Virus record (IMG/VR): IMGVR_UViG_2541047860_000002
Direction: 5' to 3' (one strand)
Origin: a virus
Lineage: Duplodnaviria > Heunggongvirae > Uroviricota > Caudoviricetes
DNA: 64,000 nucleotides
In this document: positions 5,585 to 44,485 of the stretch, in pieces
Numbering within the stretch: the first letter of the stretch is position 1
How the letters are laid out: each line of letters starts with the position of its first letter
Translations under genes and position numbers: made by a program
Notes under the pieces: model-generated
Told to the model about the DNA's origin: nothing
What the model saw: the letters and a program-made list of their open reading frames with translations, nothing else
The model's database searches: none

Positions 5585-5643
5585 CGTGCGGAGAATCCGG
5601 TTATTTAGTAGTTAAAGCCCCGGACAGGCCGGGGCAACAGTAA

Positions 5644-6585
5644 TTAACTAACAATCCAGTCCGTAGCAACAACATCCTCTGGAGCTAAATCAATCGCATG
5701 GATTTTCCCATCCCGGATAGTGCGCCAGTGCTTTCGTGATCCACCTTCGGGCCATACCCATACACCTTCAGGCCAAGATGCTCGACGGCATACGATTGCA
5801 TACCCTGTTTTAATCCTCTCTCTGGCGGTATGCAACGACAGGTTTGCCTTTGGACTTTCAGGCACAGGATGGTGGATTGCCTGAAACATCCCCATCTTTG
5901 GATGATACCAGCGTTTATTGCGTGGTTCTGCCTCCGACATCACCTGCTTAAAGGCTTTCCGGAAGGGGGCCAGAGCCACAATGGAGCGTCGCGCAAGCAA
6001 GCCATCGGGGGTCAAAAACTCATGTGTATCGGTGGGAATCCGGTAAGCGTTAACCAGGTTGCGGCATTTGGCTTCAGTCAGGCCGCATTTCGCCGCCAGC
6101 TGGCGGTAGCCAATGTAACCTTCCGGCATATTGCCTTTCTTGATTTGCTCGAGTGTTTCAGCAACCATCGATACTTGTGCTGATACCTCGGCTACCTGGG
6201 CATTTACGGCGTTGATCCGGCGTTCATGCTCAAGATGCATTTGCGCCATTTCAGCCAGGATTTCGGCTTTTGATTTTAACTGTACCCGGGCATTCTCCAG
6301 TTCGCGCCAGCGGTCCACTAGCCGGGCGGTAAATTCGGGAGAGAGCTGCGCGACGACAACAATGCTGTCTCGTTTTCCTTGCTCGCCTTCGAAGACATAG
6401 ACCGGATCTTTGACAACCTTCCCTAAGTTATTGATTCTTTCGACGAACTCATTTTGAGTTTCTCGGATGACACCGCTAGCCATCATATTGCGAATGGTAC
6501 GTAAAACATTGCCGTGACGACTACCAACTAACTCTGCAATATCTAGGCTACTCATTGTCGCTTTTTGAGAGATGGACAGATTCAT
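5644..6585 (-). CDS. Rha-family phage regulatory protein (antirepressor-like) fused to a C-terminal DUF2829-like module
   Basis: N-terminal Rha-like region (VFEGEQGKRDSIVVVAQLSPEF...); near-identical paralog at 43223-43930; C-terminal CRRASW...ATDWIVS. Confidence 0.7.
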   Translation of the reverse strand: MNLSISQKATMSSLDIAELVGSRHGNVLRTIRNMMASGVIRETQNEFVERINNLGKVVKDPVYVFEGEQGKRDSIVVVAQLSPEFTARLVDRWRELENARVQLKSKAEILAEMAQMHLEHERRINAVNAQVAEVSAQVSMVAETLEQIKKGNMPEGYIGYRQLAAKCGLTEAKCRNLVNAYRIPTDTHEFLTPDGLLARRSIVALAPFRKAFKQVMSEAEPRNKRWYHPKMGMFQAIHHPVPESPKANLSLHTARERIKTGYAIVCRRASWPEGVWVWPEGGSRKHWRTIRDGKIHAIDLAPEDVVATDWIVS

Positions 6586-6800
6586 CAGTGCACCTCCACG
6601 CAGTTCATCGGCAGATTCCAGTAATTGAGGATCTCCATCGCATCAAGAGTGAAGCGAGCAGCAAAAATGCAGGGTTCTTCGGGAAGGTATGAGCGCGCCT
6701 CTGATTCGGTAGCAGCCATGACGCAGATATACAGGTGCTTTTGGCAGGAATAGAAACGCCAGATAAATTCAGAATGAGTTGGGGTAGGGATAGTAGCCAT
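6585..6800 (-). CDS. Small protein preceding the Rha gene (Icd position of an immI-like module); paralog at 43930-44154
   Basis: 71-aa ORF; shared EFIWRF(Y/H)S.QKH core with the 74-aa paralog; stop overlaps Rha start. Confidence 0.45.
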   Translation of the reverse strand: MATIPTPTHSEFIWRFYSCQKHLYICVMAATESEARSYLPEEPCIFAARFTLDAMEILNYWNLPMNCVEVH

Positions 6801-6862
6801 ATTGGCAGCCTCCTTTTGCTAATTTAAGGAGCTACCGCGTGAGGTCTCAATCTCAATGGCGG

Positions 6863-6938
6863 TAGCACTGGCTGGGTTGAGACTACCGGCGCAAAAGGGA
6901 ACCGGCCTGCCTTTCGGCAGCCCAGCCAGCACTACCAT
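6863..6938 (-). ncRNA. Candidate structured RNA element (16-bp stem, ~44-nt loop) upstream of the Rha module
   Basis: Arms 6863-6878 and 6923-6938 pair perfectly (two G-U) only when the minus strand is transcribed; plus strand gives two C-A mismatches. Confidence 0.3.
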
Positions 6939-6983
6939 TGATCTTGGAGCTATACGCTACGTATGGCTGTGCGATGGCATGAC

Positions 6984-7007
6984 ACAAAAAAAGACGCTTT
7001 CGGCGTC
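6984..7007 (-). terminator. Rho-independent terminator (GACGC-cgaaa-GCGTC + U7) on minus strand
   Basis: Hairpin 6993-7007 followed on the minus strand by a T run (6984-6992). Confidence 0.5.
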
Positions 7008-7112
7008 TGTGTCGCCTTTTGCATTATCCGGGGTCTCAATCCCGGCACCCGTTTTTCTAAGGTGCCGTAGAAATATACCCCACGATAATGCCAGGGCGCA
7101 ACAGTCAGTATT

Positions 7113-7280
7113 TTATGCTTTGGCGGATTTTTTCCGGGCTTGCTTGCAGGCGTAGGCCATTGCTTTAGCTTTCACTTCATCCAGCTTCCCGGTGATCACT
7201 TCTTTTCCGAGAGTGACAAACCAGTCATAGCAACCGCCAGTAATGTTCTTGATTTGAAAGTTGAGGTAGCGAACAGTCAT
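7113..7280 (-). CDS. Small hypothetical protein (55 aa, MTVRYLNFQIKNITGGCYDWF...)
   Basis: ATG 7280 preceded by GGGGGTG; followed by the terminator at 6984-7007; below ORF-track cutoff. Confidence 0.3.
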   Translation of the reverse strand: MTVRYLNFQIKNITGGCYDWFVTLGKEVITGKLDEVKAKAMAYACKQARKKSAKA

Positions 7281-7601
7281 TTTGACACCCCCAGCGCGAG
7301 TAAAGAATGCAGATTATCGCGTGAGTGGTGGACGACGAGTGATGGGAAAAGACTGTAGTTGTTCATAGTGTAGTGACTCCTTGCTTTCGGAGCCGCCATC
7401 GACTGTTCCACGGTCTGGTGGCGGCGCAATAAAGGCTGGAACACCGTGAGTCAACGGGGGCTTTTCAGCCACCTATATTGCACCGCCATAGGTATGGCGG
7501 CGGCAATAATACGAAAAACTAAACAGTTTGTCTCAAAAAGTTGACCGGTGTGCCAATCGGTAGTGAATGTACATCGGAGAAATTTTCAATTCAACTTAAA
7601 A

Positions 7602-11389: not shown

Positions 11390-11411
11390 TCAAATCATTT
11401 ACGCACTCAAA

Positions 11412-28811: not shown

Positions 28812-28887
28812 TGGTGGCCCCTACCGGACTTGAACCGGTGACCGTGCGATTATGAGTCGCCAGCTCTAACCACTGAGCTAAAGGGCC
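28812..28887 (-). tRNA. tRNA with CAU anticodon (Ile2/Met-type, close to E. coli ileX)
   Basis: GGCCCTTTAGCTCAGTGGTTAGAGC...CTCATAA...GGTTCAAGTCC...CCA cloverleaf folded by eye. Confidence 0.8.
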
Positions 28888-28896
28888 AGATTACTG

Positions 28897-29028
28897 TTAA
28901 TTCCGCTTACGCTTTTTGCCAGGACCGCGTAAGGCTTTTGCTGCTTGCTCGACCCCATATGCAACCACCAGCAGAAATAAAAATGTCCACCAAGGGTTCT
29001 TGTCGGCAAACGTCCAAAATTCCATCAT
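28897..29028 (-). CDS. Small hydrophobic peptide (43 aa) between tRNA and plp
   Basis: MMEFWTFADKNPWWTFLFLLVVAYG... then basic tail. Confidence 0.2.
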   Translation of the reverse strand: MMEFWTFADKNPWWTFLFLLVVAYGVEQAAKALRGPGKKRKRN

Positions 29029-29041
29029 GTTATCTATTTGG

Positions 29042-29869
29042 TTATTTCACCGGAACAAACGGAACAGCGGTATTACTGGTCATATACTGCGGTAGCGTTC
29101 CGTTCCATTTGTTGATCGCTTCCAACTCCATAACGCCGGGGTTCTGGCGCAGAGCCTCACCGCGTAAACGAATGGCATCAGCTTCAGCCTGGGCTTTTGT
29201 GCGAATGGCATCGGCCTGTCCAGCAGCTTCTGCGCGCAGCATGTTGGCTTCTGCTTCGCGTTGCTTGACTTCCTGCTCGCGTTGCAGAGTTTTCTGGTTC
29301 GCCGTGACTTTGGCATTAATGCTGTCGATAACGGTTGGCGGGTACTCCGGCTTGCCCACATATGAGAGGCTCATTACCTGAATACCGATGGGCGTCATTT
29401 CTTCCTGAATGTCTTTAAGGGCTGCATCAAGCAATTCAGATTTGCCACCGTCGATAAATTTGTCGGTGGTCATTTTGCTGGCTAACCGGTTCAGAGCATC
29501 TGCAACCTTCTGGCGTAGATCGGTATCAGTAATATCATCTACACCTTTGCGATAGGTCTGAAATACCGTTGTGACTTTTGCTGGATCAACCTTGTAGGCT
29601 ACGCCGATGTGGTAACCAATGGTTGTTCCGTCGCTCATCTGGAAGCTGAACGGCTCATCGTATGTCTTCATTTGCTTAAAGGTCGGGAAGATATAAACTT
29701 CAGTATTCAAGCCTGTCCAGTAGCGACCAACGCCAACTACTTCACCGATACCTTTATCATCCCCCAGCTTATTTACTTTGATCCCTACGTTACCTGGCTC
29801 TACCCGATCGCATCCGGTCAGACATAAAGAACCAAAAATAATCGCTGCACTAATCAACGTTTTTTTCAT
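29042..29869 (-). CDS. plp: SPFH/band-7 domain lipoprotein (P1 Plp-like)
   Basis: Lipobox ...SLCLTGC; prohibitin-like core and coiled-coil tail; located inside tRNA cluster as in P1. Confidence 0.75.
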   Translation of the reverse strand: MKKTLISAAIIFGSLCLTGCDRVEPGNVGIKVNKLGDDKGIGEVVGVGRYWTGLNTEVYIFPTFKQMKTYDEPFSFQMSDGTTIGYHIGVAYKVDPAKVTTVFQTYRKGVDDITDTDLRQKVADALNRLASKMTTDKFIDGGKSELLDAALKDIQEEMTPIGIQVMSLSYVGKPEYPPTVIDSINAKVTANQKTLQREQEVKQREAEANMLRAEAAGQADAIRTKAQAEADAIRLRGEALRQNPGVMELEAINKWNGTLPQYMTSNTAVPFVPVK

Positions 29870-30086
29870 TAATCAATTTCCTGGTTTTTTCACGAAAAAA
29901 GACTACTGCAAAAGCCGGGTAAATGAGCGCGAGAAGGACTCCCAACAATACAAGTATTGTGCTGTCAGATGAGATCATATTTGGCAAAAGCCAAACATAC
30001 AGAACCAGTGACACAATCAAACAGAGGACGACATAAATATATAACCGCACCCATAGCGTTCGACATTTGTTCGGATTGTTCTGCAT
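29850..30086 (-). CDS. Small membrane protein upstream of plp
   Basis: 78-aa ORF with two hydrophobic helices. Confidence 0.45.
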   Translation of the reverse strand: MQNNPNKCRTLWVRLYIYVVLCLIVSLVLYVWLLPNMISSDSTILVLLGVLLALIYPAFAVVFFREKTRKLINEKNVD

Positions 30087-30349
30087 CCTCTCACTCCATT
30101 ATTTACCGAATAAAAAAGCTGCGGTGCCTGGTGCCTCCAGGTGACGTTAACCAGTTAACAATTAACGCCGGGATGTTTGACTTAACCACTAAGGAGGATT
30201 GTTTTAACTGTTCCGCGTGCGCTTAGCCGCATTCACCGCAATGGTAAGAGCACTTGGCTGGCTGGGCGGCGATGACGCCTGTACGCATTTGGTGATCCGG
30301 TTCTGCTTCCGGCATTCGCTTAATTAGCCAAATACTCTTAACGTTGCAC

Positions 30350-30436
30350 TGGCGGAGAGTAATGGAATCGAACCATCATCGCTTGCGCAATGGGACGGTT
30401 TTCAAGACCGCTTGAGCACCATGCTCCCTACTCTCC
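30350..30436 (-). tRNA. tRNA-Ser-like (UGA anticodon, long variable arm, atypical short D-loop)
   Basis: Perfect 7-bp acceptor stem, anticodon loop CTTGAAA, T-arm GATGG-TTCGATT-CCATT, CCA encoded. Confidence 0.55.
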
Positions 30437-30533
30437 AGTGATTGTGATGGTCGGTGCTGAACTCCGACACAGGGTTGTAGCAAGCCCCGCAAAGCGCGCA
30501 CTACTGTAGTTGCGGCACATCAGCCTGTGCATT

Positions 30534-30633
30534 CACCACAATGTTGAGAACACTGGTTGTCACGCTGCAACGCAACATTTATTCATAGATTGGGATATGA
30601 CCCCGTTACGCCAGTGTTCTCAACGTTGTGGTG
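30534..30633. repeat. 23-bp inverted repeat (CACCACAATGTTGAGAACACTGG / rc) with 54-nt loop; related copies at ~30233 and ~30765
   Basis: 22/23 match between 30534-30556 and rc of 30611-30633. Confidence 0.6.
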
Positions 30634-30838
30634 CCGGTTACGGTTCCGGCCAGGCCTCTTCCTCAACGGGGTGTTCTCCATACGGACTACCGTTTATTGG
30701 TCGTTCCTGCGGTTTATGTTGTGAAGCCAGATGCTTATCTTCTGGTTGCTTCAAAGAGCTGCACTTCATCACAACGGTAAGAGCACTCGATGCATTTAAG
30801 CCAAGCCCCATAAGGGAGAATGCCCTTACCTGTTGTGT

Positions 30839-30914
30839 TGGTGCCGGTTAACGGACTCGAACCGCTGACATCCTGCTTACAAGGCAGGCGCTCTACCAAC
30901 TGAGCTAAACCGGC
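30839..30914 (-). tRNA. tRNA-Thr (UGU)
   Basis: GCCGGTTTAGCTCAGTTGGTAGAGC...CTTGTAA...GGTTCGAGTCC...CCA. Confidence 0.85.
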
Positions 30915-30918
30915 AATT

Positions 30919-31005
30919 TGGTGGGGAGTGATGGAGTCGAACCACCCGAGTCGCAATGACAGTAGATTTACAGTCTACCCCGCTACCCCTACGGACTAAC
31001 TCCCC
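30919..31005 (-). tRNA. tRNA-Tyr (GUA), type II
   Basis: GGGGAGT acceptor, anticodon loop CTGTAAA, long variable arm, GGTTCGACTCC T-loop, CCA. Confidence 0.85.
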
Positions 31006-31010
31006 TAAAT

Positions 31011-31087
31011 TGGCGATGGTGGGTGGATTCGAACCACCGACCGACAGCTTAGAAGGCTGCTGCTCTATCCTACTGAGCTACACCATC
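31011..31087 (-). tRNA. tRNA-Arg (UCU)
   Basis: GATGGTG acceptor, GCTCAGTAGGATAGAGC D-arm, anticodon loop CTTCTAA, GGTTCGAATCC, CCA. Confidence 0.8.
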
Positions 31088-43025: not shown

Positions 43026-43226
43026 TCAAGTCACGATCCAATCATTACCGACAATATCAGCCGTCGATAAATCAACTTCCCGGATCTGGAGTCCATTAAT
43101 ACAAAACCATCCGGTAGTAGAGTAATTATCAGGCCAGGCCCATACACCAACACTCCATGCTTTACGGCGGCACACTTCAGCCTGTCCTTCCCTGATTTTT
43201 TTTACCGCCTGCATGATGTCCATCAC
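43026..43226 (-). CDS. Stand-alone DUF2829-like small protein
   Basis: 66 aa; ...VCRRKAWSVGVWAWP...DLSTADIVGNDWIVT; corresponds to the fused C-terminus of ORF 5644-6585. Confidence 0.45.
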   Translation of the reverse strand: MMDIMQAVKKIREGQAEVCRRKAWSVGVWAWPDNYSTTGWFCINGLQIREVDLSTADIVGNDWIVT

Positions 43227-43930
43227 TCACCTCCCCAACCGATCACCTGGAATTGCCCCATTTTTGGGTGATACCAACGTTTTCCTCGGTGTTCAGCCTC
43301 CGACATCATCCGGTTAAAAGCATTCATGAAGGGAGATAAGGCGACGATGGAACGACGCGACAATACCCCCTCTGGAGTTAAAAACTCATGTGTATCTGTG
43401 GGAATCCGGTAAGCGTTGACAAGGTTGCGGCATTTGGCTTCGGTCAGGCCGCATTTCGCCGCCAGCTGGCGGTAGCCAATGTAACCTTCCGGCATGTTGC
43501 CCTTCTTGATTTGCTCGACGGTTTCTACCACCTGGCTAACCTTTGACTCAACAACATGAAGCCGCTTTTGCTGCTGAACTGCATTTGCAGCCATTGCGGC
43601 GATCATCTCTATTTCGGTCAACGGCTGGCGTACTTGTTCTTCCAGTTCGCGCCAGCGGTCCACCAGCCGGGCGGTGAATTCCGGAGAGAGCTGCGCAACG
43701 ACAATGATACTGTCACGCTTGCCTTGTTCGCCTTCGAAGACGTAGTGTGAATTTTTAACTTTAAATCCTAAGTTATTGATATTTTCGGAAACCTCCATTG
43801 GAGGAAGTGGAATAACACCTGATTTACTCAAGCGTTCAATAGTGCGTTTAACGTTATCCGGGCGACTTCCCACCAGCTCCGCGATCTCAATGCTGGTCAT
43901 TGATGGCTTTTCAAGAATGCAGATTTCCAT
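43223..43930 (-). CDS. Rha-family phage regulatory protein (antirepressor-like), copy 2
   Basis: Paralog of 5644-6585 over ~230 aa. Confidence 0.7.
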   Translation of the reverse strand: MEICILEKPSMTSIEIAELVGSRPDNVKRTIERLSKSGVIPLPPMEVSENINNLGFKVKNSHYVFEGEQGKRDSIIVVAQLSPEFTARLVDRWRELEEQVRQPLTEIEMIAAMAANAVQQQKRLHVVESKVSQVVETVEQIKKGNMPEGYIGYRQLAAKCGLTEAKCRNLVNAYRIPTDTHEFLTPEGVLSRRSIVALSPFMNAFNRMMSEAEHRGKRWYHPKMGQFQVIGWGGE

Positions 43931-44154: not shown

Positions 44155-44485
44155 AGTTACGGCCTCACTAACAGGTTTAACAACCTGCTACCCGCTGTCA
44201 AACAGGTGGCAGGACGTGACAGGGTTGACAGACTGGCGTTAGTGAAACCAGCAGGCCGAAGCCTCCCCATCACGCCCCACCATAATTCGGGCGTAACGCG
44301 GTTTACGGACACAAAAATACCGCAATATCGGAAATCTGCGGTTGTCCGCACTAACATTCAGGCTGTCAAACCTGGTCGCAGAATTTGCTACGACGGCATG
44401 AATATAAGCCTGAAAACATGGAAGATCAACTAAAAAATTTCAGCAATGGATGACTTCAGTCGATGATGCAGATCATACATTCCGA

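Follow-up and report, generated by a model that had tools for sequence, protein, structure and literature searches.

A probable gene for a c4/CI-type antisense immunity RNA upstream of the icd-like and rha genes of a D6-like phage-plasmid

The stem-loop that precedes a Rha-type anti-repressor gene in the window (the whole stretch of 64,000 nucleotides analyzed here, from the Caudoviricetes record IMGVR_UViG_2541047860_000002, to which all positions refer) very probably encodes an antisense immunity RNA of the c4/CI type that belongs to a D6-like phage-plasmid and would act in the style of P1 and P4. This assignment builds on features that are present in the sequence itself: the genes encoded, the family to which the RNA belongs, its fold, and the segments complementary to it, which co-vary among relatives. 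The RNA, termed c4#1 in the following, is a member of a known family, and homologs of c4, icd, and the anti-repressor are already known from D6-like prophages. Together with its promoter, its leader, and the genes downstream, it is referred to as module 1.

Architecture of c4#1

The Rfam model RF01695 (C4 antisense RNA) matches the minus strand at 6942-6855 with 76 bits against a gathering score of 45 (E = 4.6e-13). The match spans the entire model, positions 1-87, and its extent is taken as the c4/CI-type antisense RNA gene (6855-6942, minus strand). Read on the plus strand, the arms of the closing stem are GGTAGCACTGGCTGGG (6861-6876) and CCCAGCCAGCACTACC (6921-6936), which form 16 pairs, 14 of them Watson-Crick; the same arms are found by a repeat search as an inverted repeat at 6861-6879/6918-6936. 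C6866-A6931 and A6867-C6930 are mismatched on the plus strand and become adjacent G-U and U-G pairs on the minus strand. Hence, the 16-bp stem with two G-U pairs that closes on the minus strand only, as described in the initial annotation, is borne out by reading the arms, but its coordinates were off by +2 nt (6863-6878/6923-6938 instead of 6861-6876/6921-6936).

That annotation had also suggested RNA folding as a check, and the fold agrees with it. The minus-strand RNA 6942-6855 reaches −49.1 kcal/mol (z = −6.3, with 0/200 shuffles as good) and consists of a long stem around two hairpins and a junction; the plus strand, by comparison, reaches −39.2 kcal/mol (z = −3.1). The earlier picture of a simple 16-bp stem-loop thus stands for the stem, whereas the interior, which had gone undescribed, additionally contains the hairpins CUGCC-GAAA-GGCAG and GCCGG-12 nt-CCGGU and an 8-nt unpaired junction. 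Going along the minus strand, the 5′ arm of the closing stem (6936-6921, pairing with 6876-6861 as given by fold and covariation) is followed by hairpin 1 (6920-6907), hairpin 2 (6906-6885) with the loop b′ CCUUUUGC at 6898-6891, the junction segment a′ GUCUCAA (6883-6877), which is unpaired in the fold, the 3′ arm, and a 3′ tail GCC(A) (6860-6857, read from the sequence). A chance origin of the stem-loop is excluded by the Rfam E-value of 4.6e-13 together with the covariation described below.

When aligned with the P1 C4 RNA of 77 nt, c4#1 is predicted to have a mature form of 79 nt (6936-6858, minus strand). The P1 c4 and P4 CI RNAs are processed by RNase P. Candidate RNase P features of c4#1 are the 5′ G after AAU and the 3′ GCCA tail adjoining the stem, and this tRNA-like acceptor end of the predicted RNA fits, by analogy, the processing of the two relatives.

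Genes downstream of c4#1

The first gene downstream of c4#1 (6585-6800, minus strand) encodes an Icd-like protein of 71 aa, which matches NCBIfam NF033153 (phage_ICD_like) with 50.3 bits against a cut-off of 25. It is followed by the gene of a Rha/Ant-type anti-repressor of 313 aa (5644-6585, minus strand), recognized by PF09669 (Phage_pRha, 36.9 bits) and by phrog_63 (anti-repressor Ant, E = 3.3e-62). The stop codon of the icd-like gene and the start codon of rha overlap in TGATG. The window and Escherichia phage D6 share ~98.5% identity over 5600-7300 and 100% over 6790-7130. In the D6 annotation, orf83 is described as “similar to P1 gene icd,” and orf82 is a Rha-like anti-repressor.

Promoter and isrK-type leader

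Module 1 is headed by a predicted sigma-70 promoter (7072-7101, minus strand) composed of the −35 element TTGCGC (7101-7096), an 18-nt spacer, and the −10 element TATATT (7077-7072). The transcript would accordingly start near G7066/G7065, at the beginning of the isrK match. An alignment of eight related modules (A5) shows conservation of both the −35 and the −10 positions; a consensus promoter scan did not report this promoter, the −35 element of which matches at just 3/6 positions. P1-type C1 operators (ATTGCTCTAATAAATTT-like, ≤3 mismatches) were not found near 7000-7200, the sole such match within the window being at 11410, and the D6 repressor may recognize another operator.

The transcript would begin with an IsrK/P4-seqA-type leader RNA (6987-7065, minus strand; RF01394, 59.1 bits against a gathering score of 50, model positions 1-77). 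The leader is built from two hairpins, a single-stranded stretch, and an intrinsic terminator, for which the terminator scan gives a stem at 7008-6992 and a U-run at 6991-6985 on the minus strand. A terminator had been noted before at 6984-7007; it is indeed intrinsic and located on the minus strand, and the description is refined in that it belongs to an IsrK/seqA-type leader with decoy sites. The c4-a1b1 model (RF03163) scores only 21.7 bits on the upstream region 7078-7025, below its gathering score of 46.7; the module-1 leader would nevertheless do the same job as a c4-a1b1 leader, though it is classed under isrK. Since the c4 gene sits behind the intrinsic terminator, the c4 level depends on read-through.

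Target sites of c4#1

The unpaired segments a′ and b′ each find a complement on either side of c4#1, always on the minus strand. In the leader, a1 (UUGAGAC, 7033-7039) is the exact 7-nt complement of the junction GUCUCAA and is located in the loop and the 3′ side of leader hairpin 2, and b1 (GCAAAAGG, 7015-7022) is the exact 8-nt complement of the c4 loop CCUUUUGC. In the mRNA leader of icd-like and rha, a2 (UUGAGAC, 6844-6850) is complementary to a′ and b2 (GCAAAAGG, 6812-6819) to the loop. Four nucleotides of b2 fall within the Shine-Dalgarno sequence AAGGAGG (6815-6809), and the site ends 12 nt ahead of the start codon (ATG, 6800). A search of the Rha mRNA leader for loop complementarity, as had been proposed earlier, is therefore positive: it is present at 6819-6812 and covers the ribosome-binding site. 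In 20,000 mononucleotide shuffles of the flanks, a single target site arises by chance at a frequency of 0.007-0.013 each, a2 and b2 arise together in 1/20,000 shuffles, and all four sites together in 0/20,000.

Between a2 and b2, a further segment (GCGGUAGC, 6831-6838, minus strand) has its complement in the 3′ arm of the c4 stem (GCUACCGC, 6859-6866, minus strand). The pair changes jointly in relatives, where GCGGUGG occurs with CCACCGC (alignment A5), which suggests that the unprocessed precursor may adopt an alternative fold. A hairpin at 6836-6803 that would sequester the Shine-Dalgarno sequence is weak (z = −1.4), its consensus fold is without compensatory pairs, and it is not claimed here.

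Covariation among relatives

The isrK-c4 stretch matches 116 phage records, mostly of Stx-converting phages, and 451 plasmid records. The relatives compared here are 80 viral loci that encode homologs of the Icd-like protein, and in 79/80 of these, a c4 RNA lies ~55 nt upstream of the Icd homolog; the exception (L004) has just 8 nt of upstream flank. The covariance model was built from two ungapped IsrK-type sequences. An earlier model was discarded because the MAFFT alignment behind it, in which P1 and P7 were included, misplaced hairpin 2. With the final model, 99 matches were obtained, 17 of them distinct, in which 98.7% of cells are paired and compensatory changes occur at 19/27 pairs of the model-fitted alignment. 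In the controls, 0/500 shuffles and likewise none of the slid registers came near the real values. Because the 99-match alignment is fitted to its model, the analysis was repeated with MAFFT and RNAalifold on 11 sequences, which gave the same structure with 14/28 pairs compensatory. The covariance analysis across related phages that the initial annotation had named as a check thus turned out positive, the pairing being kept through compensatory changes. The two G-U pairs noted there appear in relatives as U-G, G-U, G-C, or C-G, and the minus strand is hence the functional one.

Among the IsrK-type RNAs, a′ occurs in at least seven forms and b′ in at least five, and the upstream and downstream sites change in step in every case. 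Counted from the end of the model, the sites downstream keep fixed offsets, +5 for a2 in all IsrK-type relatives and +35/36 for b2. If the P1 and P7 types and the third c4-like RNA of the window (see below) are counted as well, 12 distinct combinations of a′/b′/a1/b1/a2/b2 are present. Herein, a′ and b′ assort independently: GUCUCAA or GUUCCAA is combined with CCUUUUGC or CCUUUGAC, and all four combinations are found. With the Rfam match, the complementarity to the ribosome-binding site, the Icd-like and Rha/Ant reading frames, and the conserved pairing, the earlier suggestion of a c4-like regulatory RNA placed as P1 c4 is before icd-ant is supported.

A type represented by L033 seemed to lack a2 and b2 at first, an artifact of demanding perfect Watson-Crick pairs; allowing one G-U, the sites are at the usual offsets, and the RNA pairs with a2 and with b2 through one wobble in each. 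Loci of this type (L033-L062) comprise 26 viral contigs, and their a2 is identical to that of another type (L005), with which a cross-reaction via the shared site appears possible. Among single loci, L034 has lost its a1 site, and in L039, c4 is present twice, as identical copies separated by 1.5 kb.

Proposed mode of action and alternative readings

Transcription would start from the minus-strand promoter near 7101-7072 and produce an IsrK/seqA-type leader that carries the decoys a1 and b1 and ends in the intrinsic terminator, and read-through transcripts would extend into the c4 gene. From these, a 79-nt RNA (~6936-6858) would be excised, presumably by RNase P at the tRNA-like acceptor end (5′ G, 3′ GCCA). 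In this RNA, the 16-bp stem is expected to hold the two hairpins, with the loop CCUUUUGC (b′) and the junction GUCUCAA (a′) staying unpaired. c4#1 would then pair in trans with a2 (6850-6844) and b2 (6819-6812) on mRNAs of the same operon. Since b2 overlaps the Shine-Dalgarno sequence, the Icd-like reading frame would remain untranslated, and since the start of rha overlaps the icd-like stop (TGATG), Rha expression would depend on icd-like translation. Rha probably also needs escape from Rho-dependent termination, as in P1 and P4. With both dependencies in place, the anti-repressor would be off, and lysogeny and superinfection immunity would hold. The short terminated leader with a1 and b1 could act as a sponge that titrates c4 and tips the switch toward anti-repressor synthesis. 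Weighing against so simple a scheme are the poor −35 element, the need to read through a terminator, the low score of the upstream region with the c4-a1b1 model, the failure to find a C1 operator near the promoter, and the effect of STnc1160 in Gifsy-1 given below.

The same RNA could instead be mainly P4- or STnc1160-like, such that pairing at a1/b1 and a2/b2 controls termination, at the leader terminator or a Rho site, and not primarily ribosome binding. This is regarded as rather unlikely, although by sequence module 1 is of the P4/IsrK type, with a terminated leader and a c4#1 that is 71% identical to the P4 CI RNA, and the P4 immunity region contains isrK and C4 matches as module 1 does. 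In addition, a modulation of termination at the IsrK terminator by STnc1160 was proposed for Gifsy-1 (PMC4825925). The position of b2 over the Shine-Dalgarno sequence in every relative examined, however, suggests that the block of translation comes first. In P1 and P4, termination is a consequence of such a block, and both mechanisms may operate together. A leader structure that acts solely in cis, meaning a processing or stability element or an attenuator without any antisense role in trans, is very unlikely. c4#1 does lie in the 5′ leader of its operon on the same strand, and the conserved GCGGUAG (6838-6832), which can pair with the 3′ arm of the c4 stem and changes along with that arm, hints at alternative folds in cis; but duplicated, co-varying a and b sites on both flanks are the signature of intermolecular recognition. 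Immunity in the homologous P1, P7, and P4 systems is trans-acting and specificity-determining.

The presence of a second complete c4 module at 44.2 kb of the same genome, of the canonical P1 type with a c4 identical to that of P1, raises the question of whether c4#1 is a decaying, nonfunctional duplicate. Against this highly improbable reading stand the perfect matches at all four target sites of c4#1, the joint change of recognition segments and all targets in close relatives, and the complementarity of ≤5 nt between modules 1 and 2, as expected of two working orthogonal systems. Extremely improbable is that the region encodes a small protein and that the stem-loop is incidental. The two candidates are a 39-aa reading frame on the minus strand (6938-6819), which RefSeq names “ash family protein” in D6-like plasmids and which scores 26.8 bits with Pfam PF10554 against a cut-off of 26, and orf84 on the plus strand (6856-7155), which is annotated in the D6 record. 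The substitutions across relatives, however, compensate RNA pairing, including swaps of G-U to U-G, and the variation falls precisely on the positions matching the target sites. The ATG at 6938 lacks a preceding Shine-Dalgarno sequence, orf84 has no family match, and PF10554 also matches the old “cI” CDS of P4, which overlaps the P4 match of the C4 model. Even P1 c4 was first deposited as a CDS (X15639), and both P4 CI and P1 c4 are established as RNAs. An antisense RNA that acts in trans on the icd-like leader is thus the preferred reading of c4#1.

Other c4 modules and features of the window

The second immI module contains a c4 at 44202-44287 (mature RNA 44281-44205, minus strand; RF01695) that is identical to P1 c4. 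Its leader (44355-44407, minus strand) is of the c4-a1b1 type and passes the gathering score of RF03163 with 54.4 bits, and an Icd-like reading frame of 74 aa (44154-43930, minus strand) is followed by a Rha-type gene. This gene (43026-43930, minus strand) is split into a 235-aa reading frame and an overlapping one of 66 aa, the latter matching the C terminus of the 313-aa Rha from module 1; the split may reflect a frameshift, or two genes may be the natural arrangement.

The minus strand also carries a divergent third c4-like RNA (7493-7414), which precedes c4#1 by 470 nt. It scores 40.2 bits with the Rfam C4 model, below the gathering score of 45, and 37.8 bits with the covariance model of this study, and it folds with −36.2 kcal/mol (z = −4.6). 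Its junction UGUUCCA is complementary to UGGAACA (7410-7404, offset +4), and its short loop UUGACUCA is complementary to GAGUCA (~7379-7374, offset +35) at the Shine-Dalgarno sequence of a 29-aa reading frame (7366-7277, minus strand). The latter is coupled through ATGA to a 55-aa reading frame (7280-7113, minus strand; phrog_7786, function unknown). The a1/b1 sites are absent from this third RNA. In the divergent D6-like plasmids L089 and L090, the third c4 RNA precedes a 61-aa Icd-like gene.

The three c4 RNAs share a complement of ≤5 nt with the sites of one another, except for a 7-nt match to a′ of c4#1 upstream of the third one. This UUGAGAC (7537-7531, minus strand) was considered as an extra target of c4#1 and rejected; it is unchanged in relatives with a different a′. 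It overlaps the −35 element of a promoter-like sequence (7534-7506, minus strand) ahead of the third c4, and is probably chance or a piece of that element. With this match, which does not co-vary, taken as chance, the three c4 RNAs should be orthogonal.

The tandem order is promoter-like site, third c4, 29-aa/55-aa reading frames, IsrK leader, c4#1, icd-like, and rha. A minus-strand terminator was not found between the 55-aa reading frame and the IsrK promoter. As a tentative possibility, the two RNAs in tandem, out of three mutually orthogonal ones, could hence form a two-tier antisense gate, the upstream RNA setting how far transcription and translation extend into module 1. Of all the findings, just this third c4 variant in tandem is mildly new. 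Elsewhere in the window, five tRNA genes (Met, Ser, Thr, Tyr, and Arg) are clustered at 28812-31087 (minus strand); Rfam reports four at the gathering threshold, and ARAGORN adds tRNA-Ser.

Annotation and significance

In the D6 record, the c4/isrK region has no RNA feature and just the plus-strand orf84 (window 6856-7155), and the 39-aa “ash family protein” of RefSeq, at 1393-1512 of L092 (window 6938-6819), lies over the c4 gene. PF10554 (Phage_ASH) scores 59.7 bits on the old P4 “cI” CDS (L093, 8168-8584), which overlaps the gene of the P4 CI RNA. With the RNA-compensatory substitutions and this match to the “cI” CDS, the protein-coding reading of the “ash family” frame and of orf84 is rejected; at least part of the Phage_ASH family looks like the translation of an RNA gene, and orf84 is a spurious plus-strand reading frame.

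The practical gain is the annotation of an RNA gene in D6-like records. A c4/CI identity would explain how the icd-like gene and the rha anti-repressor are silenced in D6-like phage-plasmids, which are common in Escherichia coli and Salmonella (451 plasmid records match the module). The co-varying a′/b′ segments amount to a readable “immunity barcode” with at least 12 combinations, which predicts heteroimmune co-resident prophages. The known biology of the P1 and P4 immunity systems is unchanged by this.

Comparison with known systems

The c4 and c4-a1b1 motifs were defined by Weinberg et al. 2010 (PMC2864571). The c4 of P1/P7 immI (RF01695; P1 NC_005856, 48343-48419) has its Rfam family and fold in common with c4#1. 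Also in common is the order of elements in P1 immI and module 1, namely, promoter, a1, b1, c4, a2, b2 over the ribosome-binding site, icd, and a coupled anti-repressor. The P1 record gives 7 nt for a1, 8 nt for b1, 77 nt for C4, 7 nt for a2, and 8 nt for b2, with the icd ATG 11 nt past b2; compared with these, the site lengths of module 1 are identical and the spacings nearly so. P1 c4 is just ~61% identical to c4#1, and the recognition sequences of the two differ, and hence they should be heteroimmune. Unlike the c4-a1b1-type leader of P1, that of module 1 has an isrK match and a strong intrinsic terminator. Moreover, the anti-repressor of module 1 is Rha-type, whereas that of P1 is Ant1/Ant2, and the P1 C1 operator was not found near the module-1 promoter.

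For the D6-like pYU39_89, Silva et al. 2019 described an ImmI-related region with c4, icd, and anti-repressor homologs, and this element also carries a second c4/icd region (PMC6799933). In Stx phages, isrK, C4, and Rha follow each other as in module 1; the record of the Stx2 phage LC710660 annotates an “isrK Hfq binding RNA” and a “C4 antisense RNA” before a Rha-family gene.

The isrK-STnc1160-orf45-anrP locus of Gifsy-1 resembles module 1 in that an IsrK-family terminated leader is followed by an RNA, a small reading frame, and a coupled anti-repressor, the small reading frame being the 71-aa Icd-like one in module 1 and orf45 in Gifsy-1. In Gifsy-1, the stable, processed RNA STnc1160 requires the isrK promoter, and translation of anrP is coupled to that of orf45 (PMC4825925). 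The published model stresses IsrK as a trans-acting activator, and the downstream RNA is not named c4 therein; Hfq binding of IsrK and trans-activation of translation of the downstream reading frame come from Gifsy-1 experiments alone (PMC4825925). Constitutive STnc1160 enhanced the toxicity of IsrK rather than relieving it (PMC4825925), which does not fit a simple repressor-plus-sponge picture.

The closest sequence relative of c4#1 is the P4 CI RNA, with 71% identity over 79 nt; judged by sequence, c4#1 is thus closer to P4 CI (~71%) than to P1 c4 (~61%). The P4 immunity region yields the same pair of matches as module 1, isrK with 60.8 bits and C4 with 74.9 bits. The P4 junction UUCUCAC finds its complement GUGAGAA both in the leader hairpin and downstream, and that of the P4 loop UCCUGUGAA, namely, UUCACAGGA, lies at the downstream Shine-Dalgarno sequence. 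P4 and module 1 furthermore have homologous downstream Shine-Dalgarno and start sequences (AGGAGGCUGCCAnnAUGGCUAC) and a homologous N terminus of the first reading frame. The genes controlled in P4 are those of the replication operon (kil/eta ... alpha), in contrast with the Rha anti-repressor of module 1, and whereas P4 is an integrated satellite, module 1 sits in a P1-like plasmid prophage.
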